Positions 3,227 to 24,000 of a stretch of DNA of 24,000 bases are shown here, in pieces. The position numbers were made by a program, and so were the translations under genes. The number at the start of each line of letters is the position of its first letter. Positions within the stretch are counted from its first letter, which is position 1. The notes under the pieces were generated by a model. That model was not told the DNA's origin. It did no database searches and worked only from the letters and a program-made list of their open reading frames with translations. Source of the DNA: Clostridium sp. KNHs214 (GTDB lineage: Bacteria; Bacillota; Clostridia; Clostridiales; Clostridiaceae); the NCBI RefSeq assembly GCF_000744935.1, contig NZ_JQMW01000004.1, forward strand, positions 86,869 to 110,868. The letters are read 5' to 3'.

Positions 3227-3912
3227 TTACACATTAAATAAAAAAAGCACATATCTTAGTATAAAATCAAAAACATCAAGTTCTTCTTCTATTTTCTGTC
3301 CATCTTCATGCCTTTCATAAACAAAAGTTACCTTTTCACCATCATATCTTTTTATTCTTGATTCAGCTATTACTGGCCTTGCAGTATATCTTCCAACATA
3401 TCTTCCTGCTTCCTTTGCTGTTTTTATTTTTCCTTTTCCATATACATAAAATCCATTTTTTAATTTTTTATACAGTTCATTTTTTAATTTTTTAAACTTC
3501 TTTCTGTCACTCTCAAGGTTATTTCCTATCTCATCTAACAATATTTTCTGCCATCTTTTTCTTAATGCTGTATAGTTTATATGCTTGATATTTTTCCAGG
3601 CTGTAATTTCACCTGCCCCACCTTCGGTAACAATCAAATGCACATGGGGATTCCACTTTAAATCTCTACCAAAAGTATGAATAACTGATATTATTCCTGG
3701 AGTAAAACATTCTTTTTTATTTAAATCTTTAAACCAACTCTCTTAATTTCTCCACAACTCTCACAGTTAAATTCAATAAACCCTTTGTCTAGCGATCCAC
3801 AGTTAATCATTTTGTAAACTTCTCTATCTATGTTAGCTCTAATTTTGCCCTTATTGATTTCACGGAATTTTTCCCAATTATCAACAAATATTTGTTTTAT
3901 TACTCCACGCAT
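3227..3912 (-). pseudogene. IS91-family (Y2 HUH rolling-circle) transposase, decayed
   Basis: 3721-3912 encodes the N-terminal zinc-binding domain (...MINCGSLDKGFIEFNCESCGEIKRV). After an internal deletion, 3227-3700 encodes ...ISVIHTFGRDLKWNPHVHLIVTEGG...YVGRYTARPVIAESRI..., the catalytic-domain core. The C-terminus is missing. Confidence 0.8.
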
Positions 3913-7044: not shown

Positions 7045-8657
7045 CAGGTTGTGCGAAAATCCATAATTTATGGTATAATTTAATATATAAGTATTAAATT
7101 TCTATTAAGGGGTTGTTGCAATGAATTATATTTATGGTGATGATAGAAAACAAACAAAAATTGAAATAATGGAAGACTATGTTGATAACGATAGTGAAGT
7201 AAGAATTATTGATAAAATAATTGATGTTATGGATATAGAAAGTATGGGTTTCAAAGTTGGAAATAACGATGAAGTGGGACGACCTAAATTCAATCCAAAA
7301 GATTTATTGAAATTATACGTTTATGGATATTTTTACGGAATAAGATCATCACGTAAATTAGCAAAGCAATGCCTTATTAATAGGGAAGTTATTTGGTTAA
7401 TTAAAGGTATCAAACCTAAGTATAGAGTTATTGCAGATTTTAGAAAAGAAAATGTTGAAGCTCTTGAAAATATTTTTAAAAAATTTTTTAATTACTGTAT
7501 TGAGCTGGGCTTATATGGTAAAGAACTAATTGTTATAGATGGTACTAAAGTAGAGGCTTCCGCATCTAAGAGAAAAAATTACAGCCTAAATAAGCTATCT
7601 AAAATGAAGGAAATAACCCAAAATAAAATTGAAGAATATATGCATGCAATAGAAATTAATGATAATTTAGATGAGAATAAAAATAAAGATTTTGATAAAG
7701 AAGCCATAGAGTCTGCTATAAAAACATTAGAAGAAAAATTGGAATACTACAAACAATTAGATACTCAAATAATATTAAACGATGAAACTGAGATTAATTT
7801 TACAGATCCTGATGCTAAAACAGTAAAATTTGGAGCTAATCAAGGTACTGATTTGGGATATAATGTTCAAGTAGCAGTAGATGCTAAAAATAAACTTATA
7901 GCTGCTTATGATGTTATTAATAATTCAGCAGATCAAGGTCAGTTGTTTAATATGAGTGAAAAAGCTAAAGAAGCTCTTGATGTAGATTCTATAGAAGTTC
8001 TTGCAGATAAGTGATACTTTCATACAGAAGATTTTATTAAATGCGCTGAAGGAAATATTGTAGCTTATGTGTCTAAACCAACGTATTCTAATGGCATAGG
8101 AAATCCAACATATTATACTGATAAATTCAAATATTTAAAAGAAGAAGATGCATATATTTGTCCTGACGGACAAACTTTACATTGTATTACCAAAAAAATT
8201 AATGCTAAAAAGAAAAGATATTGTAATTATGATGCATGTAGTAAATGCAAAAACAAATCTAAATGCACAAATTCATCTAAAGGAAGAACAATAACAAGAG
8301 GCGAAAATGAAAATATTACAGAAGCGGTTAACGAAAGAGTTAAGGAGAATAAATCAAAATGTATGCTTCGCCAAACAATTGTTGAACATCCTTTTGGAAC
8401 ATTAAAAAGGACAATGGGTTTTTACTACTTACTTTTGAGAGGTTTCAAAAAAGTGAGGGGTGAGATTAGTCTTGCCATTTTTACCTATAATTTAAAAAGA
8501 GTAATAAATATTCTAGGAGTTGAAAGGCTCCTAGGAGCCCTTCTTGCTAATATTTATATACATTTTATGAGAAAGAACAAAAAGATTACTATAGTCCCTT
8601 AAAAAAGGAAATAAAGTTTCCAAGTAATCTTTTTATAGTTAATTTACGCACAACCTG
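7045..8657 (+). mobile_element. IS1182-family insertion sequence (1613 bp)
   Basis: Terminal inverted repeats CAGGTTGTGCGAAAAT (7045-7060) and, reverse-complemented, CAGGTTGTGCGTAAAT (8657-8642), 15/16 identical. 4-bp direct repeat CTGG at 7041-7044 and 8658-8661. Confidence 0.85.
7121..8602 (+). pseudogene. IS1182-family DDE transposase with an in-frame TGA
   Basis: N-terminal ...GRPKFNPKDLLKLYVYGYFYGIRSSRKLAKQC...IADFRKEN... is typical of IS1182/IS5-like transposases. Track ORFs 7121-8014 and 8069-8602 share one frame. The TGA at 8012-8014 sits where relatives have Gly in the conserved ADKGY motif (here LADK*YF). Confidence 0.8.
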
Positions 8658-8823: not shown

Positions 8824-11298
8824 TTATTTCAAGCAACTATTCTTTTGACTATACTCTGTTTCGATAAATAAAGTTAATAATTCTCTTTGTTCTGGATTTA
8901 AAGTCGCATTATCACGTATCCACATATGTAATGCTTTTCCTATTGCATATGATAATTCTTTCTGTTGAACCTCTCCAATATTGCTTCTTGATACATTAGG
9001 AACAAATTCTGAATTCGTAATATTTACAATAGCCTCTTTTAAAGAAATTCCATCCACGAGATTCGGAATTTTTAATTTTAATCCTGAAAGCAATACATCT
9101 TTTAAATAGCATCGATCTGTATAAATCCAATTGTATTTGCCAATAACCCTACAATCCTTATTATATGGTAATACTATTCGGCTTCCATTGTTTATTACAT
9201 CCTGAACAATAGTAGAAATCTTTACTGGAGTATTTTCACCATGCCCAAACTGATCTCGAAAACCACCTAATGTATATCCTCCAACAATTTTATCACTTGA
9301 CATATCTACCCAAAGGTCGCCATAATCTATTTCTTCTTTCTTTCCCCAAACATTAATCGAATTATAATTTCCAATTTTATTAAGAGCTTCATCATAATCT
9401 TCTAGTACTTCATATGCCTTAAGGAAATCATATTCATCACAATCAGAAATAATCGGAATATTTAATAATCGAATTTTAGCATCTTCAACACAATCTTTAA
9501 TTAATAAGCACTCTTCATCATCCAAAGAGTACTTTTCATTATTATAATAATAACTTTCACATCCATTAATATCCCTTAATTGACCGGCAAAATTAATTTG
9601 CTTATAATTACAATCAATATAAGCCTCTACTCCATTCAAGTACTCATTCAAACATATATTTTGAGTAAAAGTATTTTCTACTCTTTTTAATTTGCACTCA
9701 AGTTCAGTAGCTTCCCCATTCTCCACCATTGAAAGCTTAATTGGAATCCCTGAATAAAGAAAATTGTTTTCAATAAATGATACTATATGCTCTATCTTAT
9801 TATCAAAAACACTTAGACATTGATCATAATCCAATATAATTTCTGTTCCTTGTGGCCTATGTGCATCCTCATACGTCAAACAAATATATTCACTATTTCT
9901 TTCAAATGAAATTCTATTCATTTTATAATCTTCATAATAAACAGTTTTTACCTCAACTTTATCAGATAACATAAAACAAGCTAAAAACCCTATTCCATAG
10001 TGCCCAATCGGAGAATATTTTCTTCCCTGCAGTAAATATTCATCAGATACATAATAAGATACGCCTACATTTAAAAAATATTTTTTTAAGATATTTATAG
10101 ACATGCCACTTCCATTATCCATAATAGTTACTTGTTTTCTATCCTTATCTAGCGTTATAGAAATAAATGGCTGATATTTTTGATATCGAAAATCCTCCAT
10201 TCGCCTCGATGTTTCTTCCATTGTTTTACATGCATCAATTGAATTCTGAATCAGCTCCCTAAGCCCAAATTTTTTATCTCCATAAATATGCTCACCCATC
10301 AATAAATTTGTTACTGCATTATAATCCAGTGATAATCTTAAATCCGAAAAACTAAATCCATTTGTCTGTATTTTATTAATCACATTTGTCTTTAGCACCA
10401 ACAAATACTTTTCACTGGCGTATTTTTCACATAAACTCACTGCATTTTTCAATTCTCCATTAATAGAATCAAAATATTTTAATAATTTTCTATGAACCGT
10501 GGGATTCTGACTAGAACCTTGAAAAATAAGTTCCTTTAATCCAGTGCGTTCATTTAAAAAAACTTTATCATAATTTTCTATAACAAAATGCTGTTTCCAT
10601 TCAAGATCACTATATTCTGTTGGCGCTAAATATTTGTATAAATACAATGGCGCTCGTTGTTCATCAATGTCCAAATAATCTGCAATTCTCAACAATACTG
10701 CAATGTACTGTGAATTCAAAGCATATCTACCTTTTGTTGATTCATAGGATAGATTCTTCTCTATCCATTCAAAATCTTCATTATGCGACATACATATCAA
10801 ACTAATTTCTATTCTGAAAGATATAATTGTTGATTCTGGAATCAAGAACAATTTCTCATCCATATTTTTTTCTATATATTCTTTAGCACGTCTCCCATGT
10901 ATTGGTCTAATACATTCCTGTAAGGCAATCTTTTCTTCTCCAAATTTTTCTAATACTTTGCTATACTTTCTCTCTCCTAAAATTGAATTATCATTTTTAA
11001 TGTCTCTTATTTCATCATTATTTGTTACCATTCCAATATCATGTAATAAAGCGCTATATATTAATGAAATCACCTCTAATTCACTTAATTGATCTATATC
11101 TGATATTAGATTATACATATATTCCATTACATCTATAGAATGTCTAATCCCATGAACTGTATAATTCGTAAAAACATTATTAATTAATGGCAATACATCA
11201 TTTGCATATTTAATAACTTCGTTGAGTTGTGTTAAAAATTTACTATCTTTTTTTCTTAACCACTCATATAGATGTGTCTCTTGTACTTTTTCTATCAA
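8824..11298 (-). CDS. 824-aa protein: N-terminal HD phosphohydrolase domain + Hsp90-like GHKL ATPase domain + ~350-aa uncharacterised C-terminal region
   Basis: HD motifs: H49/H53 (VHGIRHS), H86-D87 (ALLHDIGM), PIHGR, RIADYLD. Bergerat-fold motifs: E348..N352..D355 (LRELIQNSIDA), D394-G398 (MDNGSGM), G435-G437 (GHYGIGFLACF). An RBS-like GGGGGAGG lies upstream of the ATG. Confidence 0.85.
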   Translation of the reverse strand: MIEKVQETHLYEWLRKKDSKFLTQLNEVIKYANDVLPLINNVFTNYTVHGIRHSIDVMEYMYNLISDIDQLSELEVISLIYSALLHDIGMVTNNDEIRDIKNDNSILGERKYSKVLEKFGEEKIALQECIRPIHGRRAKEYIEKNMDEKLFLIPESTIISFRIEISLICMSHNEDFEWIEKNLSYESTKGRYALNSQYIAVLLRIADYLDIDEQRAPLYLYKYLAPTEYSDLEWKQHFVIENYDKVFLNERTGLKELIFQGSSQNPTVHRKLLKYFDSINGELKNAVSLCEKYASEKYLLVLKTNVINKIQTNGFSFSDLRLSLDYNAVTNLLMGEHIYGDKKFGLRELIQNSIDACKTMEETSRRMEDFRYQKYQPFISITLDKDRKQVTIMDNGSGMSINILKKYFLNVGVSYYVSDEYLLQGRKYSPIGHYGIGFLACFMLSDKVEVKTVYYEDYKMNRISFERNSEYICLTYEDAHRPQGTEIILDYDQCLSVFDNKIEHIVSFIENNFLYSGIPIKLSMVENGEATELECKLKRVENTFTQNICLNEYLNGVEAYIDCNYKQINFAGQLRDINGCESYYYNNEKYSLDDEECLLIKDCVEDAKIRLLNIPIISDCDEYDFLKAYEVLEDYDEALNKIGNYNSINVWGKKEEIDYGDLWVDMSSDKIVGGYTLGGFRDQFGHGENTPVKISTIVQDVINNGSRIVLPYNKDCRVIGKYNWIYTDRCYLKDVLLSGLKLKIPNLVDGISLKEAIVNITNSEFVPNVSRSNIGEVQQKELSYAIGKALHMWIRDNATLNPEQRELLTLFIETEYSQKNSCLK

Positions 11299-11316
11299 AA
11301 AACCTCCCCCTTTATT

Positions 11317-11826
11317 CTATATAGCAAACTTATTTTTTAATTCTTCATCAGTTTCTATTTTTTCACCAACCCACGGTTGCAAAAAATATTTGATATGTGG
11401 ATTCACCATGTCTACCATATGATTTTGTCCAGCTGGCGTAATTACAAAATAATGTTGCAATTCAATAATCAAACCATTATTCATCGGTAACTCTAACGTA
11501 TGTGTGCTCTCCCTCAAAAAAGCCTTTATAATCATAACTTTCTCCTGATTCATATTCTTTAAATATTTAATTTGTCCTTCAGAAACTTTCTTTGCAACTT
11601 TTTTATCATGGAAATGGTGATACACTTTTGACATCAAAAGTACAACTAATATTGCTAATGAAACAACAAATACTACCCCGATTACAAAACCATACCGATT
11701 ACGAAACTCCAACATATACAACTTTTTTATAATACGATTAGGCAAAAAAAGCAAAAAACCACTTGCTATTGCTAATGCCCCTAATATATTTGGTGGTAAT
11801 TTCAAAAACTCTATAAAATCCTTCAT
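11317..11826 (-). CDS. 169-aa two-TM membrane protein, SieB-like (superinfection-exclusion B family resemblance)
   Basis: Two N-terminal hydrophobic helices (ILGALAIASGFLLFLP and YGFVIGVVFVVSLAILVVLLM) followed by a soluble tail. The layout and the LKLP...LLFLP...F...YG..IG pattern recall SieB-family proteins from memory. The stop is 18 nt upstream of the HD-GHKL start. Confidence 0.75.
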   Translation of the reverse strand: MKDFIEFLKLPPNILGALAIASGFLLFLPNRIIKKLYMLEFRNRYGFVIGVVFVVSLAILVVLLMSKVYHHFHDKKVAKKVSEGQIKYLKNMNQEKVMIIKAFLRESTHTLELPMNNGLIIELQHYFVITPAGQNHMVDMVNPHIKYFLQPWVGEKIETDEELKNKFAI

Positions 11827-12251: not shown

Positions 12252-15200
12252 TTATTTAATGCATCTGATACGTTTTTTAAAATATGTTGGATATTCGTCC
12301 AGCAATTGTTTTACCTTATCAGTCTTTGATTTTATGTATTTTATTATTTCATCTTCTTTTATCAATTTATTTCCTAGTTTATTTGATAGTACTGTTGCTA
12401 GATATCGGTCATTAAAAATTTTTTCACAAATTGATATACTAGTTTGTGAATCAACACCATATTTAATTTTTTTCTGAAGCATCATTAAGCGACTGAGATT
12501 CGTGCTTTCTGAATTTAAAAAATCCATAATATTACCAATTAGAAAATTAAGTTTATACGAAATGTAGTGGCAACATATTTTTTCGACATCCATCATAGTC
12601 TTATCATATGCTTGGCTCATTTCTACGCATGACATACCATGAATCCAATCTTGACACAAATTTGCTGTAATTAAATCCGCTTCATATATTTCATTATATA
12701 ATCCAACTGTCATCTCTATTAATTGCTCTTCTGAGTATGTTTCGTTATTAACATCATATTCTTCAATCCAGCTCTTTACATTTTTTGCAATATCCCTTGG
12801 AAGTATTGCCGCTGAATATTGTTTAATATCTTTTCTATTATTATAAATATCCTCTACTATCGTATAAATAATCATAGATAGGCGTTTTTCCTCTTCTTCT
12901 GTTGCCAAATACATTGCCAAGGTGTTTTGAAATGCTCTAGCTGCCTCTTCCTGCATCTCATTGTAATCATCTAGTATATTATTTTTACAAAGCACATAAC
13001 TTATTTCACTCTCTATGATACCTATTATGCTTTTATAATTTTGAACTTTACTTGTAATATTTCGCCGGTATTGATCTTGGTTTACATCAGGATACCGTTC
13101 TTTAATATCCATCATCAATTCTTCTACAAGAGTATATTCCCATTTTTCACAAAAATTATCACATATATATTTCGTAACAAATTCACCATATACCGTAAGT
13201 TGATAATTTCCTTTAAAGTCTTGGACTACACTTAAAATTGCACTTCCACACGCCTCAGCGTTTTGTGAATCAAATAAATCTGTTGCCTCTTTCCATTCAT
13301 AAAAGCCTCTACCATTCCTTTTATTATCAAAAAGTTTCGAATCTGTAACTATAATACTTCCTTCCGTATAAACACCTGACCTTGCTGTTCTTCCCATCAA
13401 ATTCTGAAAGCTTCTAGTTGTCATCATTTTCTGAGCAGACTTCATACTTGTCATTATTAAATACTTAATAGGAATATTAACTCCCTGAGCCAAAGTTGAT
13501 GTACACGCTATAATTTTTAATTTTTCTTTTCGAAATGCGTATTCAATAGCTATACGTAATCCATTTGGCAAATAAGAATAATGCGGTAATATGCCTATTT
13601 CACATGCTTTAGTATACACATAATCATCACCATAGTACGCTTGAATAAGGTTTTTCAATTTATCTAGTTCATCCATGTCTGCTGATTGTTTTATATTACT
13701 CAAATCATAACTTCTATCCTCTAGTTCAACAACCCGATCTAGTATTTTAGGAATAGATCTTCTTTGATTTAAATATACTGCTATACCACCGTTTTTACAT
13801 AATAAATTCGAATAATATATTGCAACATCTTGTGGTTTGCTCAACTCAGGAAATACTTTCTCTTTTCTTTCCCGTTTTTTCATGCTAAGTTTCGTTATAT
13901 TAATTGCTCTTGGTATATAAAAATCTTCTTCTGAAAAAGAATCTGAATAGTAATGAATTTCTTTTGTTTTTGATGTAAACCCAATTACTTTAGGAGTACT
14001 TCTAATATTTTTGTCATAAGCCAGTATTCCATCTTCTCCAAATGCCCAATGACATATCTTATCAGCATTTGAAAGAACTGCAGACATTAAAACCATTTGA
14101 TGAGTAATTTGTAGATTCGTTGTAATATCTGAAACTAATAATTCATACAATGCCCCTCTACTTTCATCATCAAACATATGACCTTCATCAAAAATATAAA
14201 GATTAATTTCATTTATATAATCTGGTTGATGATGAAATATATATTGCAATTTTTCTGGAGTACATACAAAGATTTTATGCCTTTTTTTATTTTCAAATAG
14301 ACTTTCAAAATCAAATTCTAATACATCCGAAAACTGATTAATTATAACATCTTTCAGAAATGCTCTATGCATATCATCTGTTATCTCGTTACAAAGAGCT
14401 CTTAACGGTGCAACAATTAAGGCAGTATCCCCTCTTTCGGCCAAGAACATTGATCTAATTATTAATTCTATACTTTTTGTTTTTCCAACCCCTGTAGGCA
14501 ATTGAACAACTGCATTCTTCCCTCTTAATATTCCACTTTCCCCAATAAGTTTTTGAGATGGCCATATCAACTTTATTGCATTTTTCTGATTAAAATAAAC
14601 TTTCCATTTTTCTTCTTCTACAGCTGAATATTTCGGAAGAAGTTTTCTCGCAGAATATCCTAGCATAATTCTTAAAACTGCACACAAAACTTCTGAGAAG
14701 AACAAATCCAATGGGCTTCCTTTAATATCCATTTGTTTCTTATACTCATCTGCCTCTTGAAGAACTTGCTCTTCTGTTCCTGTTTGTAAATAATTTTTTA
14801 CTAAATTTAAAAGAGTACTCTCAAAAGATTGTTTTCTTCGACCTGTAAAAAGTAAGTTGAATACTTCAACCAAAATCCCCCTTGTATCATTCTGAATTTG
14901 TTTATCATTTACAGCTTCTGATAGTACTTTTGCACTTCCAAAATCGTCTAAAAAGAAATATGCAGCCGCACCAGAAATCAAGAAATCTTGATCATGTTCT
15001 TCCTGTTCCCTAGCTTTGACAGCTGCATCATAATATTCCGAACAATAATGTAATCTTTCTTTTATTTTGTATTGAGTATCCTTGTCATTATTTATAATTG
15101 CTTCTGCATATTCTGACAATGTTAACACTGTTGGAAAAACCAAATCTCTATAATTTAGTGGAAATTTAGGATGACTATCTTCAGGTATATTATATTCCAA

Positions 15201-15257
15201 AAGTTTCACTTTTGCTTTTTGGTATTTTAACATATATTCAGATCTTCTAGAACTCAC
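12252..15257 (-). CDS. hamB: Hachiman HamB, SF2 DEAD/DEAH-type helicase (1001 aa)
   Basis: Walker A QLPTGVGKTK (G256-T260), motif II IFDEGH (357-360), SAV, QGVNIP, and motif VI QNLMGRTARSG. The GTG start overlaps the hamA stop (GTGA). Confidence 0.8.
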   Translation of the reverse strand: MSSRRSEYMLKYQKAKVKLLEYNIPEDSHPKFPLNYRDLVFPTVLTLSEYAEAIINNDKDTQYKIKERLHYCSEYYDAAVKAREQEEHDQDFLISGAAAYFFLDDFGSAKVLSEAVNDKQIQNDTRGILVEVFNLLFTGRRKQSFESTLLNLVKNYLQTGTEEQVLQEADEYKKQMDIKGSPLDLFFSEVLCAVLRIMLGYSARKLLPKYSAVEEEKWKVYFNQKNAIKLIWPSQKLIGESGILRGKNAVVQLPTGVGKTKSIELIIRSMFLAERGDTALIVAPLRALCNEITDDMHRAFLKDVIINQFSDVLEFDFESLFENKKRHKIFVCTPEKLQYIFHHQPDYINEINLYIFDEGHMFDDESRGALYELLVSDITTNLQITHQMVLMSAVLSNADKICHWAFGEDGILAYDKNIRSTPKVIGFTSKTKEIHYYSDSFSEEDFYIPRAINITKLSMKKRERKEKVFPELSKPQDVAIYYSNLLCKNGGIAVYLNQRRSIPKILDRVVELEDRSYDLSNIKQSADMDELDKLKNLIQAYYGDDYVYTKACEIGILPHYSYLPNGLRIAIEYAFRKEKLKIIACTSTLAQGVNIPIKYLIMTSMKSAQKMMTTRSFQNLMGRTARSGVYTEGSIIVTDSKLFDNKRNGRGFYEWKEATDLFDSQNAEACGSAILSVVQDFKGNYQLTVYGEFVTKYICDNFCEKWEYTLVEELMMDIKERYPDVNQDQYRRNITSKVQNYKSIIGIIESEISYVLCKNNILDDYNEMQEEAARAFQNTLAMYLATEEEEKRLSMIIYTIVEDIYNNRKDIKQYSAAILPRDIAKNVKSWIEEYDVNNETYSEEQLIEMTVGLYNEIYEADLITANLCQDWIHGMSCVEMSQAYDKTMMDVEKICCHYISYKLNFLIGNIMDFLNSESTNLSRLMMLQKKIKYGVDSQTSISICEKIFNDRYLATVLSNKLGNKLIKEDEIIKYIKSKTDKVKQLLDEYPTYFKKRIRCIK

Positions 15258-16090
15258 TTTTTACACCTCTCGTAAACCTCATGTGCTAAATCCATTAATT
15301 TTCTACCATGTACATAGAATACTGCTGTTCCTGTTTTTATTTGCAGTTTATCCCCTTCAATATTAGGAATAACTTTCATTGTTTTCTCGTTAACCTTTTT
15401 TTCAGGAATATTATCCAAACTAGATATTCCTGCTCCAATATATCTAAGCTTATAATTATACCCCTCCTTTGTTTTCTTCTGAAAACGCAAAACATCTTCT
15501 GCCACATTAGTCTTACCCATCATTTTTAATTTCTTTCGCATATAATTAAGCGTTATTGAAACTCGATACTCATCTTTTACAGAATCTAAAACTGCATCTT
15601 CAATTGGATTTGTACTCTTTGATGTCAATTGAGCCTTTACCTCCACTGCCATCAACTTATCTTTTTCACTTGGGCTTTTATCTAAATTATGGAATTTAAA
15701 ACCTATAATGTCCGTTCCATGCTCTGACAAAGTTTTTCCTGACATATTATACTGTCTACATCTTGGAACTTCATAATTATAGACAAACTCCAGTAAATCA
15801 GAAAATAATATCTCACTAATAGTATTTGACCTTGCTGTTCCACCCATTGGATCCGTTTTTTGTGGAATAATATATTTTCTCAAATAATCCTCTACTGGCA
15901 GATTTAACTCTTCACTATCTTCTTCTAGTTCCTCATCTGAAATATAATGTCTTCTTAAATGAAGTGCCCAATCATCAAGTATTGATTCTTCCTCATCATA
16001 ATCTATTTCATAACAGAATAAAGATTTCCCATTATCAAAAATAACATCTTTTTCTTTTGTAAGCCATTTTAGATACTCAGGTTGCATCAT
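15254..16090 (-). CDS. hamA: Hachiman HamA (DUF1837, PD-(D/E)xK-like)
   Basis: 278 aa, directly upstream of and translationally coupled to a large SF2 helicase. Core GGTARSNTISEILFSDLLEF...HGTDIIGF (D127)...LMAVEVKAQ (E150, K152) fits DUF1837. Confidence 0.75.
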   Translation of the reverse strand: MMQPEYLKWLTKEKDVIFDNGKSLFCYEIDYDEEESILDDWALHLRRHYISDEELEEDSEELNLPVEDYLRKYIIPQKTDPMGGTARSNTISEILFSDLLEFVYNYEVPRCRQYNMSGKTLSEHGTDIIGFKFHNLDKSPSEKDKLMAVEVKAQLTSKSTNPIEDAVLDSVKDEYRVSITLNYMRKKLKMMGKTNVAEDVLRFQKKTKEGYNYKLRYIGAGISSLDNIPEKKVNEKTMKVIPNIEGDKLQIKTGTAVFYVHGRKLMDLAHEVYERCKK

Positions 16091-16313
16091 AATTTATCCT
16101 TAGCAGCAAACCGTATATTATGCATATAAATATTACATAATAAGCATTTATTACTTTATTTACAATAAATACCGTCTACTACATTCTCCTCCCCTTATTG
16201 ATTTTTATTTATGCTGACATTCTTGTGCAAAAATACGCTTGACACAGAATGCACAAAGCACTTACATCCTTTCTGTAAGGCAAAATATTAATCTTCTGCT
16301 TATTCTATCTGAA

Positions 16314-17201
16314 TTAATTACTTACTTTTCTCTTTGAATTAGCAAGATATGTATTCCGAGAAAATGGTCCTTTATACGCCTCTTCATCTAAAAATCCAAG
16401 AATAATTTTTACCTGTTCCTTATCATTTGGAATAACAACCTTTTCATCTTTTATATTCACAATTATTCCAGATTCATAAGCCAAATCCTTAATTTCATTT
16501 GCAGAATAATTTTCAAGTACCTTAGAATCGTTAATCATAGCAATTTTTCTTCTATTCCATGTATTTGCCATTCCTTTAAAATTATCTACATTTTCTAAAC
16601 TCAGCTTGTCTGATCCTGCAAAACATTCAACCTCTTGATCTGTTGCCGAACGATAATAGTCACCCAAGTCAAACACCTGCCTTGCAAAGAAAAAAGAAGA
16701 AAACTGTAATTCGCCTTCTGTATAAAAGCAATCAATATTATCAGATATACTAATTCCAAAATTTTTTTCTCTATGAAATGTGTCGTCAGTAAAAAACAGG
16801 TTAAACCATGATGTAGATATATATTGCTCTTTACGAAAACGTTGAAATGCCACTTTAAATTTTTCTGTATCATCTGCCTCTGTTCTTTTTCCAAGAAACA
16901 CAGCCTTTATCTCAAGGAAATTCCCATCTTTCTTTTCATAAACCGTTACTCCTAATGGATCTCTTATTGCATCCTTAATTTTGTCTGCCAGTTGAAAATT
17001 TTCAACAGCCAAGAATTCATCCCTGTGAGGTTTGTAACTTCCATCAAATTTAATCCTTGTTTTGTCAGTAATCAAATCACCTAATGCAGTTTCAAATGCA
17101 CTGCAAATATCTTTTTGCGTATCCGCATCAACATCAAGTCGATATATTTCATTTGCATGGGCGCCAGCAGCAATAATCATTACAGAACAATCCTCAAACA
17201 T
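16314..17201 (-). CDS. kwaB: Kiwa KwaB-like protein (DUF4868)
   Basis: 295-aa soluble protein 4 nt downstream of a 4-TM partner. Size, gene order and the C-terminal ...ILGFLDEEAYKGPFSRNTYLANSKRK pattern fit my memory of DUF4868/KwaB. Confidence 0.65.
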   Translation of the reverse strand: MFEDCSVMIIAAGAHANEIYRLDVDADTQKDICSAFETALGDLITDKTRIKFDGSYKPHRDEFLAVENFQLADKIKDAIRDPLGVTVYEKKDGNFLEIKAVFLGKRTEADDTEKFKVAFQRFRKEQYISTSWFNLFFTDDTFHREKNFGISISDNIDCFYTEGELQFSSFFFARQVFDLGDYYRSATDQEVECFAGSDKLSLENVDNFKGMANTWNRRKIAMINDSKVLENYSANEIKDLAYESGIIVNIKDEKVVIPNDKEQVKIILGFLDEEAYKGPFSRNTYLANSKRKVSN

Positions 17202-17205
17202 ATTA

Positions 17206-17730
17206 TCATCTCCCTGTATCTAAAAGTAAAAAATCAAAAATACGGTTTACAGTCCCTAGATCTTTTGACCTTCTCAATTTTCTCTTACTTATTACTGTAT
17301 ATCCAGACATACCATGTTCACCACTTACTTGGTAAAAGTGATACTGTTTTACCCATAAAAGTGGGTTTGGAATTGATGTATTAACATAGGGTGCTACAAC
17401 AGCAAGTATTACACCTAATATTGCACATATTGTCACATCAAAGTCTTTAATTGCCATACTTGCAAATGGTAATGCATAACTTAACACATACAAAACTACC
17501 CACCCATCATATGGAGAAATATCATTTGTTCTTATTATTATTGGAGCGATGTGTGTTTTTCCATAAGAAAAAGAAACTGAAAACAACACAATGAGTACAA
17601 TTCCAACTGCAATACTAATAAGTGGAACTTTTAATGTTTCCTTTTGCAAATACCAAACCAAAGCAAAGATAAAACTAAGTGGTGCTACTGTAGAAACATT
17701 ATAAATAAATTTCTGTACAATATTTCCCAT
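17206..17730 (-). CDS. kwaA: Kiwa KwaA-like membrane protein
   Basis: 174 aa with four predicted TM helices and a basic cytoplasmic tail. RBS GAGGTGAG lies 5 nt upstream. Immediately precedes the KwaB-like gene. Confidence 0.6.
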   Translation of the reverse strand: MGNIVQKFIYNVSTVAPLSFIFALVWYLQKETLKVPLISIAVGIVLIVLFSVSFSYGKTHIAPIIIRTNDISPYDGWVVLYVLSYALPFASMAIKDFDVTICAILGVILAVVAPYVNTSIPNPLLWVKQYHFYQVSGEHGMSGYTVISKRKLRRSKDLGTVNRIFDFLLLDTGR

Positions 17731-17748: not shown

Positions 17749-18057
17749 TCAAATAATGCTCGTTTTATTTCTTGTTTTTACCACATTCACCCACTTCTTC
17801 TCAAATGAATTAGAACCACCAACATCAAAATATTTTTCAAAGAATACTTTCAGTTTATCCATAACCCTCTATTTTTTCTCTGCCCTACCACCACTGCCAA
17901 ATCTAGAAACAGGTGACATAATCTTCTCAATATCTGTTCCGACTGTCTTAATCTCTCCATCTCGGAATGCATTCTCAATAAACTTTCTAGTGTCCGCTGG
18001 TTTTAGCTTTTCCTCTGTGATAATGGCTTGGAGTTCCTTTTCACGCTGATTTAGCAA
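17749..18057 (-). pseudogene. hsdR: C-terminal remnant of a type I restriction R subunit (HsdR, EcoR124-like C-terminus) with an in-frame TAG
   Basis: ...EEKLKPADTRKFIENAFRDGEIKTVGTDIEKIMSPVSRFGSGGRAEKK*RVMDKLKVFFEKYFDVGG... matches the conserved HsdR C-terminal tail. TAG at 17871-17869 falls where relatives have Gln. No helicase or nuclease part lies upstream. Confidence 0.7.
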
Positions 18058-18142
18058 ACATAAACTTCCAGTTCATGTAACGACCCTAGGGGTACTGCAA
18101 AAAAAAGGTTGCAGCAGAGCAAAAAACTTTTTTGGGTTTCTA
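18052..18142 (+). mobile_element. MITE copy 6 (full length, TA..TA)
   Basis: TA|GCAAACATAAACTTCCAGTTCATGTAACGACCCTAGGGGTACTGCAAAAAAAAGGTTGCAGCAGAGCAAAAAACTTTTTTGGGTTTC|TA. Confidence 0.85.
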
Positions 18143-18158
18143 TAAAACAACTCAGATT

Positions 18159-18732
18159 CTAGTTCAATTTGAATTCTAAAAGCCTTATAACACGCTTTAA
18201 TCTGTTCTTCATTATATCTCTAAATTCTAAAACTTCCTCTTCTTTTATCTCTATAACTTTTTCAATTAATTCATTCCAATAATCATCACGATTAAATTCG
18301 TAAGTATCAATGAATAATTTATTATATTTATTTTCTCTCTGCATATCCTTTTCACAGATTTCTTGCTTTTTATCTTCACGCAATGTATTAGATATCTTCC
18401 ATCTGCTAATAAACCGTTCTTTACCTTGAGTCATATTCTCAACAGCATGTTTCACTGCAAGTCTAGCTAAAACGCTCTCAGCAAATTTGCCTCTTTTATA
18501 ATTAGCATAAGCTTCATTTTCTTTACTTTTTTTATTAAAGTACTCGAATCCTTTTTTTATTTCTGGAGCAATACTTGCTTCCAAAATTGTAAATGCAGTT
18601 GATACTCCTTGAACAAATTGTGCCTGCTGCAATAACAGAACTAGCTAATATTGCTGTTCTATCTAAATTTTCATTCTTCCCGTTAATATATTTAATTAAT
18701 TGTTTTAATGTTTCCTCTTTATATGTGCTCAT
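18159..18732 (-). pseudogene. Unknown ~190-aa gene, apparently frameshifted
   Basis: Track ORFs 18535-18732 (MSTYKEETLKQL...LASSVIAAG) and 18159-18632 (QAQFVQGVSTAFTILEAS...) overlap in frames offset by 1 nt around GCAGCAGGCACAA. Joined, they give one continuous plausible protein. Confidence 0.5.
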
Positions 18733-18999
18733 AATTTATTTCCTTTCATTAAGATATAAATTACTTAAATGCTATTAATTGATTTCTTAAAAATAACAAT
18801 TCATTATAATATTCTACAAACTTCTAGCTTTACCTTTTAAATATCAGTAAATATTCCAATATATTTATATTTTGTCATCGATATACAAAATAAATATTAA
18901 TTTACCATTATACAATTTATAAAACACAAAAGGACCATGAAGTTTTAAGCCATAGCTCTCTTTATGATCTTTTTCTACTTTATATTAAATTTACAACAA

Positions 19000-19196
19000 C
19001 ATATCCCCTTACACCCTATCAAATACCAACTCTTACCTTAACACCATTAATTTCTTCTTTATTCTTAAAATCATCACCTTTTGTGCTAAAGTTAAAAAAG
19101 CTGGTAAAGTACATGAATTCAAGGATTATAATGTATCTTTTGTACTCCCCCCATAAACCCTGACGAAACTCCACCCCGCCAGCCCTAATTTCTCGG
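19000..19196. repeat. Diverged paralogue of the DNA flanking MITE copy 5 (11925-12093 plus 12185-12212), without a MITE
   Basis: By eye, roughly two-thirds to three-quarters identity. Examples: AAGGATTATAATGTATCTTTTGTACTCCCCCCATAAACCCTGACGAA here versus AAGGATTTCTATATATCTTTCTGCACTCCCCACATAAACCCTGACGAA; also TATCCCCTTACACCCTAT versus TATCCCCACACTCTAT. Similarity resumes at AGCCCTA beyond the point where copy 5 is inserted. Confidence 0.5.
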
Positions 19197-19628
19197 TCAA
19201 TTCTAATAAAGTTTGCCTAAATCTATTAGTAATAAGGACTAAATTCCACCTTATTTCTATCATCCTTAACTCCTATTAAGGCGTAGCTGAAGCATCCCAT
19301 TACCATCCTATAAACCTACTAAAACCCTTGCTATATCTCCCTTTAACCCTACTCCCTTTCTCCCTTAAATCTAATTCTGGTCATAAAAAAAGAGCCAAGA
19401 TTTTGCTCTCAGCTCTAGTTTTTGTTTGATTTTTTTAGATATTTCCACCCCTTATGAGGCTTCCACCATGAATTAGTGCAAATTTCAGTGGTTTGGAAGA
19501 ATAGTGGAAAAATCATATATTTCAACCTATCTAAATTGCTTAACCCTTGATTTTCTTAGTTAAGCTCACCACAGTCTCCACATGTGTGTAGACAAGCTAT
19601 AAATACAAATACTCAAAAATAATAATTC

Positions 19629-19659
19629 GACCCCCTAGGTCTTTTTATAAGAGGGGGTT
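19629..19659 (-). terminator. Probable terminator after the HTH/zinc-ribbon gene
   Basis: Minus-strand ACCCCCU-N15-AGGGGGU (7 GC-rich bp) followed by CGAAUUAUUAUUUUU. Confidence 0.45.
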
Positions 19660-19759
19660 CTTGGGTTAAAATTGGCTATATTACCTATTTTGCAATACCC
19701 ACCTTTCTTTATTTCTTCATTTTGCATGTTGCAAATATCCGAAATATACCCTCTTATTT

Positions 19760-20269
19760 TTATACTTCTTCATCTCCAAGTAGCAGTTCTTTAAGCCATT
19801 TAGGTAGTTTACTAACCTTTTTAAATTCTAAGATTTTATCAGCGATTTCTTTAGCGTCTTCTTTCCTCCAAAATCTATCTTTAATGTAACAGTCTCTACA
19901 GCAATACTTAAGGTGCTTAATACCTAAAGACTTAAATTCTTTTCCACAGTAGGAACATTTTAAATTAAAAGCTTTACGATGAGTTTTGTCCCACTTCCTT
20001 TTACATTCCATGGAACAGTATTTCCTCTTTCTCCCCTTGGCATTCTGCTTTATTTCTTTACCACATTGAGGACAGAATATATATATAAATTCTTCCTGCA
20101 TCAATATCTTTCGCTTTAAGGCTAGTTCTTCACCAAAGCCATCTAGTCCATGTCTCCTGCAATAACCTCTTACAGAATCTCTTGATAGTCCTATTTGATC
20201 TGATATCTTTTTATATCCTATCCCCTCTAGCCTCAATTGTCTGATTTTTTCTTTTTGCTCATTAGTCAC
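19760..20269 (-). CDS. DNA-binding protein: N-terminal sigma-70 region-4/resolvase-type HTH plus two CxxC zinc ribbons
   Basis: EKIRQLRLEGIGYKKISDQIGLSRDSVRGYCRRHG is the HTH. It is followed by CPQC..CSMEC and CSYC..CCRDC. Proteins like this accompany serine-recombinase elements in Clostridia (from memory). Confidence 0.75.
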   Translation of the reverse strand: MTNEQKEKIRQLRLEGIGYKKISDQIGLSRDSVRGYCRRHGLDGFGEELALKRKILMQEEFIYIFCPQCGKEIKQNAKGRKRKYCSMECKRKWDKTHRKAFNLKCSYCGKEFKSLGIKHLKYCCRDCYIKDRFWRKEDAKEIADKILEFKKVSKLPKWLKELLLGDEEV

Positions 20270-20392
20270 CTTACATCAGCTCCTTAACAAATAGTAGTCT
20301 AGTAATTGCTCTAAATCAACTATGTGTCAAGAATTTTATTCTTCATTACTTATTTTTTAGGTAGGTATTCTTGTAATAGAGAATTTAAAGAA

Positions 20393-22054
20393 TTAATTGC
20401 TCCTTAAAAAAAATTTATAATTCTCAAGTTCAATACAATCACTATCTATCTCAGCTTTTTTACTTCTAGCTATTTCATATTCGCTCTTTATTTTTGAATA
20501 TAGAGTTTCAAAATAATTATCATATGTTGCATTTTCAAGTGTTTTACATATTTCATTTAACTTATACCAATTACACCATGCAGCTTTCTCATTATTATGG
20601 TTGCAATCTGAAAAATGAGCAAAGTGTCTTCCTACTACGAAAAACTTGTATTTCCAATCTCCATTTAATACTTCTTTTTTAACTCCAAACACATCTGCCT
20701 TATCCTTGATAGTACTTGACGATAACCACTTTGATACATCATCTATCCACTTATTACTTGCGTTAATAAAATTATTCTTTTTACTGTTCCTTTCACTCAT
20801 AGATCCACCAAATGGCTCCTGCCACTTTAATTGAAATACTGCCATTGTTTTAGACTCTGTATCGATAACTAAAGCATCAATATCTGTAAGTCGTCGTTTA
20901 TCTTCATATATATTAATATTTTTATCAATTTTTATAAAGATACCACTATCTTTAATAGTATCATATAGTTGAGTTCTAAAAATCTGTTCCCTTGTGTTTA
21001 TTTCTCGGCTCCAATCCCTTGGAAACCTTCTACTTAGTTGTTGCAACAAACACATAAATGGATCTGTTAAAAATGCCAAATTTGTTCTTAATAACATTTT
21101 GTTTGCAACTTTTAAAAACATAGGATATGTATTGTTAAAATTGTCAACTGAATCAGACAAATCATTTTGATTATAAGTCAAAACATCCATTATTATTTTT
21201 GCTGTATCCTCAGAAATATTTAATGCTGTAGTTAAGGTTTCTATTTCTTCCTCTATAGTATGAAATACGTTAAGAATATCTATTAATTTAATATTAGGAT
21301 TCTGTCTAATCAGCAAATCACAAAAGTCTAAGTGTTTTAAAGTTATACCAATAAAAACAACAATGCTTGCTATGTAGTCCACATATTTTACTCCCCCAAA
21401 CATAGCATCTTCAGGAAAATCATGCTTACCCCAATATGTATCAGAAATACAAGTACCTAAAACTAAATAGAAATCATCTATCTCTTTATTTGCTGAATAT
21501 CCTATATAATGATTTTTATATAAATAAACCATTTTCTCCATAATTTTATGGACATCTTCTATATTCTCCGTAAATGCTAGTACTTTAGGTTGCTCCTCCA
21601 TAAACTTAAAATAGTCATTTCTTTCTTCTTGTTCAATAGGATGACCTTCTACCATAACATTAAATTCATACTCTTTATCCTTGATTTTCTTCAATCCTAT
21701 AAGGTTATACTTCGTCATTGATAGTAATTTTTTTATAGCACATATCTTTGAAAATAACCAAAATACCTGATGACTAAAGCGTTCTATTTCACCACTTGTT
21801 GTAAACAAGGGATACTCATCACGTCTAAAATCTTCATAACATATATTTAAAATATTTGGCCAAGCTCCTAAATAATATGCTGTTAAAGCTTTATTCAATT
21901 TATCTTTGTTACGTAAATTAGTCAAATATAGATAATCAATAATTTTTACAAATTCTATTGTACAAACACATTTATCAAATACTTTTTCTGATAACTTCAC
22001 TTCATAATCGGAAAGAAATAAGGTTAATTCTTCAAATGATTCATTACTATTCAA
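20393..22054 (-). CDS. 553-aa uncharacterised protein with a C-terminal Mrr/NERD-like PD-(D/E)xK-type motif
   Basis: TTG start preceded by GGGGGG. Residues 390-410, TDIDALVIDTESKTMAVFQLKW, fit the D...(Q/E)xK restriction-endonuclease-fold pattern (as in Mrr D..QxK). The ~380-aa N-terminal helical region is unrecognised. Confidence 0.75.
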   Translation of the reverse strand: MNSNESFEELTLFLSDYEVKLSEKVFDKCVCTIEFVKIIDYLYLTNLRNKDKLNKALTAYYLGAWPNILNICYEDFRRDEYPLFTTSGEIERFSHQVFWLFSKICAIKKLLSMTKYNLIGLKKIKDKEYEFNVMVEGHPIEQEERNDYFKFMEEQPKVLAFTENIEDVHKIMEKMVYLYKNHYIGYSANKEIDDFYLVLGTCISDTYWGKHDFPEDAMFGGVKYVDYIASIVVFIGITLKHLDFCDLLIRQNPNIKLIDILNVFHTIEEEIETLTTALNISEDTAKIIMDVLTYNQNDLSDSVDNFNNTYPMFLKVANKMLLRTNLAFLTDPFMCLLQQLSRRFPRDWSREINTREQIFRTQLYDTIKDSGIFIKIDKNINIYEDKRRLTDIDALVIDTESKTMAVFQLKWQEPFGGSMSERNSKKNNFINASNKWIDDVSKWLSSSTIKDKADVFGVKKEVLNGDWKYKFFVVGRHFAHFSDCNHNNEKAAWCNWYKLNEICKTLENATYDNYFETLYSKIKSEYEIARSKKAEIDSDCIELENYKFFLRSN

Positions 22055-22139
22055 TAGTTTCCCCCCAATATCATATTAACTTATACCGACATAAGTTGTA
22101 ATTTGATTTCATTTCTATCTATAAAAGTTGCTATAGATT

Positions 22140-23384
22140 CTAGTACGAATTTTCTTCCACACCAATTCGAACCCTAAATGCTACTGGCACTAAACTAATC
22201 TCATCTTTATTATTTTCAAACGGATTATTGATTCTCCATATTTTAGGATTAGCTGAATTAGCTTCAAAAACTATATACACCCAGTAGTTAATATCATTTT
22301 TTGCTCGTTCTAACTCATTTGCTGTCAAGTAAAAATTAGCATCTCCTGGTTTTGCTCTAGTTGATTTTACTTCTATATAAATTTCATTACCATTTTCATC
22401 AAATGATAATATATCATAACCTGCCGCATCATTTTCTTTTGAGATATGTTTAATAGCTTTTACAAGATTTCTCTTGCCACAAGTCTTAAGCTTATTTATT
22501 TCAGACTGTAAAACTATTAGTTCTCCTCTATCTCCTAGTCTTTTATTATTCCTATTCTTCTCTTCAAAGTCCACTTTTCCGCCACTATTGTTTGTAGAAG
22601 TAGATTTAGTTGTTGGAATGCTTTTAGGCCTTAATTCAATAATTGTGTAATTCACATCACTAATACCCGAAAATACCTCTACCATTGGCTTATTACTATC
22701 AACATCAATTACACCTTTAACTTTATTATTGGTAGGGCTTCCAAATAAATAATATAAGAACTTTCCAAACTTATATATACTCCATGACTTCATTATGGGA
22801 TCATTATTTTTATACTCTAGGATTATTTTCTGCTTATCAATTTCAGAAATCCCTTTTGTAAGTCCTAAGCTTAACTGATTCATAAAGAAATCTAAATGAC
22901 TACTGGAAAAAATATTGAGATAATCGTTAGGATAGTATATAGAGAGTATTTTTCCTTTTAGCATTGGTGATATTAAGTTATTATTAATCTTATCGAAATC
23001 TTTAATGGCACCCGCTTCAATTAAATTAACTATTTCTCTTTTAATTGCTTCAAAGGCTTCTTCTACTGTGTCCCCCCATTTACCAACAATTCTATATTTT
23101 TTCTCCGTATCTGCACCAAAAGTGCCATAGTAAACCCCAAACTTTGTAGCAAAAGCACCTTTCATATTACCCAAGTCTCTCAATTCCGTTTCTATTCTAT
23201 TACAAAACGTGTTTCTGTCACCCTTGCCATTTATATACTCATCTATTTTCATGTTCAATATTGAATCTTTGGAGTAATCGGCAACAAATCTAACTCTTAG
23301 TTCTTCTATTTCCTTTTCCTTATCTACATCTAAAAATTTACTTTCTTCAAAACCTGCTATATGAACTTGATAAGCTATATCCAT
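22140..23384 (-). CDS. DUF3883-domain protein (414 aa) with an unassigned N-terminal domain
   Basis: The last ~130 aa (22140-22532), DRGELIV...AAGYDILSFDENGNEIYIEVKST...FYLTANELERA...YWVYIVF, is the DUF3883 (nuclease-fold) signature. Start moved to ATG 23384 (MDIAYQV...) behind GAGGGAGAG. The track start at 23438 lacks an RBS. Confidence 0.8.
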   Translation of the reverse strand: MDIAYQVHIAGFEESKFLDVDKEKEIEELRVRFVADYSKDSILNMKIDEYINGKGDRNTFCNRIETELRDLGNMKGAFATKFGVYYGTFGADTEKKYRIVGKWGDTVEEAFEAIKREIVNLIEAGAIKDFDKINNNLISPMLKGKILSIYYPNDYLNIFSSSHLDFFMNQLSLGLTKGISEIDKQKIILEYKNNDPIMKSWSIYKFGKFLYYLFGSPTNNKVKGVIDVDSNKPMVEVFSGISDVNYTIIELRPKSIPTTKSTSTNNSGGKVDFEEKNRNNKRLGDRGELIVLQSEINKLKTCGKRNLVKAIKHISKENDAAGYDILSFDENGNEIYIEVKSTRAKPGDANFYLTANELERAKNDINYWVYIVFEANSANPKIWRINNPFENNKDEISLVPVAFRVRIGVEENSY

Positions 23385-23568
23385 AATAATCTCTCCCTCA
23401 CCATAGACTCGTATAAAAATATGCGTACATAATTCCACATGATCAATTTCAGTGAATTTATAACCATATTTTTTGCTTGAAGTTATTTGCTTATTTCCCC
23501 AAATCTCTTAAAAATGATTGCACTAAGCACCAAAAGTAATCAATAGTTTTTTATCTTTTTAAGACTAA

Positions 23569-23597
23569 ATTATAACATTATTTGGCAGAATATTCAA
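23569..23597 (-). promoter_or_regulatory. Candidate promoter for the DUF3883 / 553-aa gene pair
   Basis: Minus strand: -35 TTGAAT (23597-23592), 17-nt spacer, extended -10 TGTTATAAT (23577-23569). Lies just downstream of the recombinase terminator. Confidence 0.45.
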
Positions 23598-23602
23598 TCC
23601 AA

Positions 23603-23643
23603 TCAAAAAACACCGGTCAAGGTAAAATTCACCCCAACCGGTA
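23603..23643 (-). terminator. Strong rho-independent terminator after the serine recombinase gene
   Basis: Minus-strand ACCGGUUGGGGU-GAAUUUU-ACCUUGACCGGU (12 bp, including 3 G.U pairs) followed by GUUUUUUGAUU. It starts 11 nt after the stop at 23654. Confidence 0.7.
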
Positions 23644-23653
23644 TATCTCCAAT

Positions 23654-24000
23654 CTATTCAATTTCACATTCAATCTCTGTACCATCAAGCAATGTTACAA
23701 TTATTTTTTCCCCCTCAAAGACAGTCATCTTCTCAATAATACTAATGAATAAATCCATATCAAATTCTTCTATTGGTTCTGCGATTTTCAGAATTCCAAT
23801 CAATTCCTTTGATTTGTACCTTACCAAAGCATTCTTGCTCTTTAAGTGCTCCTTCCATTTTTCCATGAAATAATCCCTGTTCTCAATCATTGCATTGAAA
23901 ACATTTATAAATGTTTGATGTAAAACTCTATCATCTATATGCTTGTTTTTACACCCCTTTTCCCCTTTGACTCTATACTTGTTATTGCATCTCCATATTA
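23654..24000 (-). CDS. Large serine recombinase, C-terminal part only (gene continues past the right edge)
   Basis: The frame is open from 24000: ...IWRCNNKYRVKGEKGCKNKHIDDRVLHQTFINVFNAMIENRDYF...LFISIIEKMTVFEGEKIIVTLLDGTEIECEIE*. The zinc-ribbon and coiled-coil/C-terminal beta tail are typical of Clostridial large serine recombinases. The track shows only the part after an internal Met. Confidence 0.8.
   Translation of the reverse strand, partial: IWRCNNKYRVKGEKGCKNKHIDDRVLHQTFINVFNAMIENRDYFMEKWKEHLKSKNALVRYKSKELIGILKIAEPIEEFDMDLFISIIEKMTVFEGEKIIVTLLDGTEIECEIE

Follow-up and report, generated by a model that had tools for sequence, protein, structure and literature searches.

The question raised by this locus is whether two neighbouring genes, each coding for a protein with a predicted nuclease module, form one two-gene defence system or were inserted separately at the same place. 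The locus lies in a stretch of 24,000 nucleotides from Clostridium sp. KNHs214 (contig NZ_JQMW01000004.1, forward-strand positions 86,869 to 110,868), which is called the window here and whose own numbering is used throughout. An earlier note on this DNA had described two co-directional genes 85 bp apart and had read them as one defence unit. The gene layout was confirmed; the two genes are named A and B in the order of reading, and both are on the minus strand, like all genes of the interval, which runs from the end of a large serine recombinase gene to a gene with a helix-turn-helix (HTH) and a Zn-ribbon. The features on which the argument depends are as follows.

22140-23384, minus strand: gene A, 414 aa from ATG, with the ribosome-binding site GGGAGAG

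20393-22054, minus strand: gene B, 553 aa, TTG start after GGGGGG

22055-22139, minus strand: A-B intergenic region, 85 bp, with an AT-rich hairpin at 22078-22097 and the ribosome-binding site of gene B

22147..23698, minus strand: gene-A cassette, a mobile unit running from the final 45 nt of the recombinase gene through terminator, promoter and 5' untranslated region to the end of gene A

20334..22146, minus strand: gene-B cassette, present in the window and absent from the syntenic A-only contig L091

The reading preferred here, to which a probability of about 0.6 was assigned, is that the interval holds two unrelated, independently moving single-gene nuclease cassettes stacked in the slot between the recombinase gene and the HTH/Zn-ribbon gene of a temperate-phage-like element. 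The co-occurrence of the two genes was analysed in both directions. Searches using tblastn with A and a hidden Markov model (HMM) built from 28 A homologues revealed an A-like or DUF3883 protein in none of the 90 loci with gene B relatives, while tblastn with B and a B HMM recovered gene B in none of the 16 loci with gene A relatives, which include contigs at 95%, 79% and 71% identity with usable downstream sequence. The earlier note had itself named a lack of co-occurrence elsewhere as a result that would refute its reading, and by this test the proposal of one two-gene system is refuted.

The comparison of gene order gave the same answer. Contig L091 shows the A-only form of the slot, in which a homologue of A (window 23383-22147) is followed directly by a homologue of window 20333-19833; as the contig passes directly from the end of A to window 20333, the segment 22146-20334 holding gene B is absent from it. 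Locus L089 shows the B-only form, with window 22112-20404 and 20330-20141 present and no A upstream, and here the last 58 bp of the A-B intergenic region (to 22112) travel with gene B. The gene-A cassette was found once more in L107, where 1553 bp match at 94% nucleotide identity in an unrelated context and the similarity ends at the stop codon of A. The closest relatives of gene B stand in different surroundings: L088 (65% identity) after a DUF2971 gene, L089 (64%) without A and L090 (55%) before a TIR gene. The synteny of L091, L089 and L107 is decisive on the independence of the two genes, and as judged from these alignments A and B are separately inserted single-gene cassettes and not one two-part system.

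Gene A was matched over its full length by the PADLOC model of PD-T4-1 (PDLC04021, E 5.4e-89, residues 16-411 on profile positions 19-381 of 383), and the DUF3883 domain that had been noticed in the 414-aa protein was recovered as Pfam NOV_C/DUF3883 at residues 287-381 (E 5e-18). Among the 28 homologues, residues E288, E295, D324, E338 and K340 are invariant, E338-V-K340 being the EVK motif, and the N-terminal domain is strongly conserved as well. On the basis of the full-length PD-T4-1 match and the DUF3883 domain, gene A is assigned by homology as a new member of this known single-gene defence family, with a conserved N-terminal domain and a predicted C-terminal DUF3883/NOV_C PD-(D/E)xK nuclease; the earlier statement that no named system applied was wrong for this gene. 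Over 700 homologues, ~407-421 aa long, make up the family, and those that have a name are called 'DUF3883 domain-containing protein'. The neighbours of the relatives at 95%, 79% and 71% identity differ each time, and no partner is conserved.

PD-T4-1 came out of a functional selection for anti-phage systems in the E. coli pangenome (Vassallo et al. 2022, PMC9519451), and a later review (PMC10952713) counts it among the PD(D/E)XK nuclease systems. Gene A resembles it in its length of ~410 aa, in the C-terminal DUF3883 PD-(D/E)xK nuclease and in occurring as a lone gene in varied contexts; it differs in source, as PD-T4-1 came from E. coli while gene A belongs to a low-GC (~30%) organism and a prophage slot, and would thereby be a low-GC, prophage-borne addition to the family. 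Gene B is not part of the PD-T4-1 system, and gene A would be a nuclease effector that needs no partner, like PD-T4-1 in E. coli. A second alignment, to the C-terminal ~310 positions of the PADLOC TmtA model (E 1.5e-21), covers residues 43-407 of gene A, but the sacsin/GHKL ATPase of Tiamat (TmtA) is absent from gene A. The characterised modification-dependent enzyme YenY4I and the McaZI-like DUF3427-DUF3883 fusions have DUF3883 as their catalytic PD-(D/E)XK domain (PMC6765204). Gene A has in common with these enzymes the use of DUF3883 as nuclease, whereas their PUA/DUF3427 reader domains are absent from it.

For gene B, no match was found in Pfam, NCBIfam, PHROGs, PADLOC or the PDB sequences. 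A word-index search gave 19 relatives, the best at 65% identity, and an exhaustive profile search of 1.84 billion representatives gave 769 relatives at E<=1e-3, which sets the family size at ~770 clusters at 50% identity; a single architecture of ~555 aa is shared by nearly all of them. No recurring weak Pfam family appeared when 85 members were scanned one by one, one member matched SduA_C weakly (E 0.0077), and the sequence-profile search of PDB returned only a spurious thioredoxin match (E 0.05). The label 'Mrr/NERD-like' given to gene B earlier did not hold, with neither the window protein nor any of 84 further family members matching the Mrr_cat or NERD profile at E<=1. The motif D391/D393...Q408-x-K410 on which that label was based is present and invariant in 85 family sequences, and it is completed by E356 to the signature E...D-x-D...Q-x-K. 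Across 110 diverse family sequences E356, D391, D393 and K410 are the sole invariant residues; Q408, invariant in 20 and in 85 sequences, is at least 90% conserved in the 110.

The fold of the protein was predicted using AlphaFold2 (AF2), and two parts were distinguished.

20555..21022, minus strand: gene B residues ~345-500, predicted PD-(D/E)xK core, alpha-beta-beta-beta-alpha-beta in two AF2 models

21035..22054, minus strand: gene B residues 1-340, mostly helical N-terminal domain by AF2 secondary structure, with no assigned fold family

Both models are confident: the full-length model had a predicted local distance difference test (pLDDT) score of 88.6 and a predicted template modelling (pTM) score of 0.87, and the model of the C-terminal domain a pLDDT of 83.5. 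The core includes helices 354-366 and 419-446 and strands 387-392, 403-410 and 468-475, and the invariant residues are placed by the models on helix 354-366 and on strands 387-392 and 403-410. Foldseek gave no match at E<=1e-3 for gene B, the best being E 0.012 (PDB) and 0.0097 (BFVD), and with the full-length model no PDB entry scored below E 0.1. The top lists consisted nearly entirely of PD-(D/E)xK nucleases, none individually significant: Bax1, MunI, arenavirus L endonuclease, R2 endonuclease, Shedu, VC1899 and Nt.BspD6I, and also PfoI, McrC, Card1, Can2 and phage PD-(D/E)XK, RecE-like and Cas4-like proteins. A PD-(D/E)xK-type nuclease fold is thus well supported as a prediction for the C-terminus of gene B. 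The claim that both proteins carry such a module is in accordance with these results, for A through NOV_C and for B through the conserved residues and the models.

Shedu SduA, Mrr, NERD, McrC and Card1/Can2 are PD-(D/E)xK nucleases with N-terminal sensor domains, and gene B is similar to them in its alpha-beta-beta-beta-alpha-beta core and its signature residues. It differs in having no significant profile or structural match to them, standing outside the Pfam families Mrr_cat, NERD and SduA_C, and in its 340-aa N-terminal domain, which has no recognisable relative. This domain gave no significant fold or profile match; it has the near-invariant residues D40, E141, Y186 and H241, and, as read from the secondary structure, residues 263-325 may form a winged helix-turn-helix. 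The Pfam scan of gene B and its family members revealed no known modified-base reader domain (SRA, PUA/EVE, DUF3427 and similar). Two fused family members, P0056 (1143 aa) and P0072 (1116 aa), carry an extra copy of the N-terminal domain (profile ~5-363) followed by a full-length gene B unit. As the extra copy is of that domain alone, the fusion suggests an independent module, which may pair with itself.

In the proposed mechanism gene B, like gene A, would act alone. Its C-terminal core, with E356, D391/D393 and Q408-x-K410, would cut DNA as a Mg2+-dependent endonuclease, while the large helical N-terminal domain would provide recognition of the target or trigger; the adjacency of A and B would then be physical stacking without functional coupling. 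The copy in the window is intact with all predicted catalytic residues present, and across genomes the distribution of the family is patchy and its contexts are variable.

The slot that received the two cassettes was compared with related contigs. It is bounded by the following elements.

23654..24000, continuing past the window edge, minus strand: 3' end of the large serine recombinase (integrase) gene

19760..20333, minus strand: conserved backbone, a TTGACA-containing leader and the HTH/Zn-ribbon gene closing the slot (phrog_2308, E 4.8e-35)

The recombinase fragment at the window edge matches Zn_ribbon_recom weakly. Over its 114 aa it shares 73% identity with the C-terminal end of an open reading frame (ORF) of 470 aa in the viral contig L113, and this ORF in turn is 68% identical to the recombinase of L091 with Resolvase, Recombinase and Zn_ribbon_recom domains. 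Upstream of the slot, L091 has an Amidase_3/SPOR endolysin followed by two tandem serine recombinases. The leader and the HTH/Zn-ribbon gene are kept after A in L091 and after B in L089, and 60 relatives of the HTH/Zn-ribbon gene were found in IMG/VR viral contigs. A pairing of gene B with this downstream gene was considered and rejected, as the HTH/Zn gene is found without B in L091 and in the 60 viral loci.

In L113, L114 and L116 the HTH/Zn-ribbon gene is preceded by the same recombinase at a distance of 1.9-4.5 kb, and the cargo between them varies: AbiJ/Abi_C and an unknown protein in L116, an Mrr_cat protein and unknowns in L114, and three unknown proteins in L113. In L112, a 1057-aa Sacsin-HATPase + NOV_C (Tiamat-like) protein (L112:2705-5878) and after it a 262-aa LmuA/Avs2-N-like nuclease (L112:5992-6780) stand just upstream of the HTH/Zn-ribbon gene, and no recombinase match was found within the 7-kb flank of this contig. 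With its NOV_C domain, the Tiamat-like protein puts DUF3883-type cargo at this position once more, in a different form. L108 and L002 are again mosaic, with remnants of recombinases. The hotspot was seen in only about 8 related contigs. Since the same recombinase and HTH/Zn-ribbon flanks hold different cargo across related viral contigs, the interval is read from this comparison as a hotspot for cargo, situated where the integrase gene ends a temperate-phage-like element, with the A and B cassettes stacked in it. The variable cargo bears out the earlier view of defence-type cargo carried by a recombinase-bearing, prophage-like element.

Prophages of the P2/P4-like type have hotspots with variable anti-phage cargo at a fixed position beside conserved phage genes. 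The present slot is like them in its fixed flanks and interchangeable defence cargo and unlike them in phage lineage and integrase type, and to our knowledge a serine recombinase-HTH/Zn-ribbon hotspot has not been described previously. Nucleotide similarity to L112-L114 ends at window ~19571-19583, about 190 bp downstream of the HTH/Zn-ribbon gene, which may mark the end of the phage-like element (att site); the Kiwa and Hachiman systems of the window would then lie outside it. A megablast search of window 18000-24000 against the phage and plasmid collections gave no match, and relatives of gene B are very rare in viral contigs, with 3 loci in IMG/VR.

The genomic company of the gene B relatives was analysed in the fetched flanks of the 90 loci. 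A C5-cytosine methyltransferase was present in 45 of them, at a median distance of 2.6 kb and upstream in 35 of the 45, compared with only 1 of the 16 gene A loci taken as control; only 27 of the 45 are on the same strand as B. Vsr was frequently adjacent (21/90 loci) and was the immediate upstream gene in 9. Half of the relatives stand near restriction-like clusters of C5-cytosine methyltransferase, Vsr and GHKL proteins, and gene B is often the last gene of a methylase operon, sometimes overlapping the preceding gene. On rhizobial plasmids B, a 'hypothetical protein' in RefSeq, adjoins dcm-vsr-Type II endonuclease or an ATP-binding protein and vsr. Such MORC/paraMORC-type restriction-modification (RM) neighbourhoods were described in 2008 (PMC2292703); gene B is facultative in them, and the window copy has none of those partners. 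An identity of gene B with the DUF4420-type 'novel restriction endonuclease' of MORC operons was rejected, the hhalign comparison of the gene B C-terminus (A4) with 13 DUF4420 proteins (A7) giving a probability of 0.2%.

In the 41 B loci without methylase-type modules, the flanks match CBASS cyclases, DISARM DrmB/DrmD, DRT, BrxD and DpdF, as well as Type II and Type IV restriction models and PDC candidates. Relatives were also found near integrases. As the immediate upstream neighbour varies widely across loci, gene B has no universal partner. A ~235-aa HNH-like protein (cluster c6, CxxC...DH...CxxCN) stands beside B in 8 loci, directly upstream in most (among them L006:7235-8008, L013, L023, L028, L031, L032 and L076); it has no Pfam match at 1e-3 and may be a true partner of a gene B subclade. 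Modification-dependent enzymes have been reported as neighbours of C5 methylases with a different specificity, among them cases with a MutH/Sau3AI-like gene adjoining (PMC6765204), and the gene B relative in L003 is in an arrangement like this precedent, with a C5 methylase and a MutH/Sau3AI-like gene. No C5 methyltransferase or other partner family was found in the 24-kb window.

The signals around the two genes were then considered.

23610..23644, minus strand: intrinsic terminator of the recombinase gene, 16-pair stem and T-run

23569..23597, minus strand: putative promoter of gene A, sigma-70 type, extended -10 (TTGAAT-17-TG-TATAAT), 10/12 matches

The terminator (23644-23610) proved stronger than the 12-bp stem claimed before, with a folding free energy of -23.3 kcal/mol, a z score of -5.47 and 0 of 200 shuffles equally stable. 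The extended -10 promoter was found where it had been placed, with the TG, and it falls within the 94%-identical A cassette common to L107; it is a putative promoter by consensus match, and over the whole region 25 promoter-like sites were found against 25.8 expected from shuffles. The description of a unit with its own promoter, insulated from the recombinase, agrees with this promoter and the strong terminator. The hairpin at 22078-22097 exists, but the intergenic RNA folds no better than chance (z -1.5, 15/200 shuffles equally stable); as its fold is close to that of shuffles and a T-run is absent, a role as terminator or regulatory element was rejected. The terminator scan detected none between A and B and none after B. 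A candidate internal promoter for gene B, TTACAA-17-TAATAT, was spotted by eye and fails the scan criteria. As no terminator separates them, A and B are probably both transcribed from the promoter at 23597-23569 in this window. An upstream GTG at 23438 is a possible alternative start of gene A, and the N-terminus of gene B is consistent with the aligned homologues.

This arrangement is what speaks for a cooperative two-gene defence system in which one nuclease-fold protein senses and the other executes: A and B are neighbours read in the same direction across a gap of 85 bp, one good promoter precedes both, and no terminator interrupts the gap. Such a system is nevertheless very improbable given that even profile searches found the two genes together in none of the 90 B loci and none of the 16 A loci, and given the A-only and B-only forms of the same slot, the 94%-identical A cassette without B, the PADLOC model of PD-T4-1 as one protein matched end to end by A, and the A-family relatives without a conserved partner. 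The remaining alternatives concern gene B. The rhizobial loci, where B adjoins dcm-vsr or an ATP-binding protein and vsr, are what would be expected if B were a methylation-sensitive endonuclease or auxiliary nuclease of a C5-methyltransferase (Dcm) RM system, with the window copy an orphan (methylase elsewhere) or inactive. This is considered unlikely, as the flanks of half of the loci lack a methylase, only 27 of the 45 methylases share the strand of B, a nuclease other than B is already found in many of the clusters (Type II endonuclease in L105, DUF4420 or an HNH protein), and the window has no C5 methyltransferase and yet an intact B with all catalytic residues. Type II restriction genes almost always adjoin their methylase, which weighs in the same direction, and gene B is present in the window without an adjacent cognate methyltransferase, while only 45 of the 90 relatives' loci contain a C5 methyltransferase. 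Less probable still is a non-defence role in DNA repair, recombination or mobile-element maintenance (e.g. a very-short-patch repair accessory or homing-type enzyme): Vsr in 21 of the 90 loci, immediately upstream in 9, and the nearby integrases would agree with it, whereas the patchy distribution and variable contexts are those of horizontally moved cargo, the neighbours of B are enriched for defence systems, the prophage slot holds AbiJ, Mrr-type and Tiamat-like genes elsewhere, and B is very rare in viral contigs.

The reading of two stacked single-gene cassettes was kept, and for gene B a restriction-like defence role is, from its residues and neighbours, the most likely one. A self-contained enzyme, modification-dependent (Type IV-like) or trigger-activated, is favoured over a methylation-sensitive restriction partner; the classical methylation-sensitive role appears less likely because B has stayed intact with no methylase near it, both here and in about half of the loci, and because another nuclease is often already present near the methylase. 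Several points weigh against this reading as a whole. The fold evidence for gene B is qualitative, with no structural match at E<=1e-3 and no profile library match. The strong link between B and C5 methyltransferases could mean that B needs a methylase, which is absent from the window. The A-B gap contains neither a terminator nor a convincing promoter; the two genes are probably co-transcribed here, and a strain-specific functional interaction may exist. Nuclease activity and phage defence of A and B from this organism are predictions only, as are the defence role and the substrate proposed for B.

The window is a dense defence island. Two complete systems were found in tandem at 12252-17730, with strong PADLOC matches.

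17206-17730, minus strand: KwaA of Kiwa

16314-17201, minus strand: KwaB of Kiwa (E 7e-81)

15254-16090, minus strand: HamA of Hachiman

12252-15257, minus strand: HamB of Hachiman (E 4e-277)

Window 8824-11826 holds an 824-aa HD-CE + HATPase_c_3 protein (HD-CE E 3e-50) and, immediately upstream of it, a SieB-like superinfection-exclusion protein (169 aa, PF14163, E 1e-36). Apart from a weak REase_II match PADLOC assigns the two to no system, and they may be another candidate two-gene module. Between Kiwa and the prophage-like end, a 62-aa ORF at 17869-18057 (minus strand) matches the C-terminus of a Type I restriction subunit R (EcoR124_C, E 3e-9, profile 187-245 of 260) and is an hsdR remnant. 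An IS transposase at 7121-8602 (plus strand) is present in two ORFs (DUF772, 297 aa; DDE_Tnp_1_6, 177 aa), probably split by a frameshift or stop, and a 68%-identical piece lies downstream of the A cassette in L107. A ParE-family toxin (371-685, minus strand, E 8e-14) and a truncated Y2-type transposase fragment (3227-3643, minus strand, PF04986) were also seen, and Rfam and tRNA scans of the window found nothing.

Adjacency and a shared promoter had suggested a new two-nuclease system, and comparative synteny resolved it into two stacked single-gene cassettes. The lasting value of the locus lies in the gene B family and in the prophage hotspot. The serine integrase-HTH/Zn-ribbon slot looks like a defence hotspot of a temperate-phage family and could be mined for more cargo. 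The gene B family is sizeable and unseen by Pfam, NCBIfam, PHROGs and PADLOC, and it is a candidate defence nuclease linked to RM systems; its invariant set is a nuclease catalytic set and its neighbours are restriction and defence genes, which makes gene B a concrete and cheap candidate for testing and, as predicted from these features, a reasonable new candidate restriction-like defence nuclease. More tentatively, and with the odds somewhat against it, gene B may represent a widespread unannotated class of single-protein restriction or defence nucleases with a new N-terminal sensor and a function tied to cytosine-5 methylation. If so, this class of ~770 clusters would span bacteria and archaea, and its members could be Type IV-like enzymes against foreign cytosine modifications or back-up nucleases of Dcm-Vsr-GHKL modules that are able to work alone.

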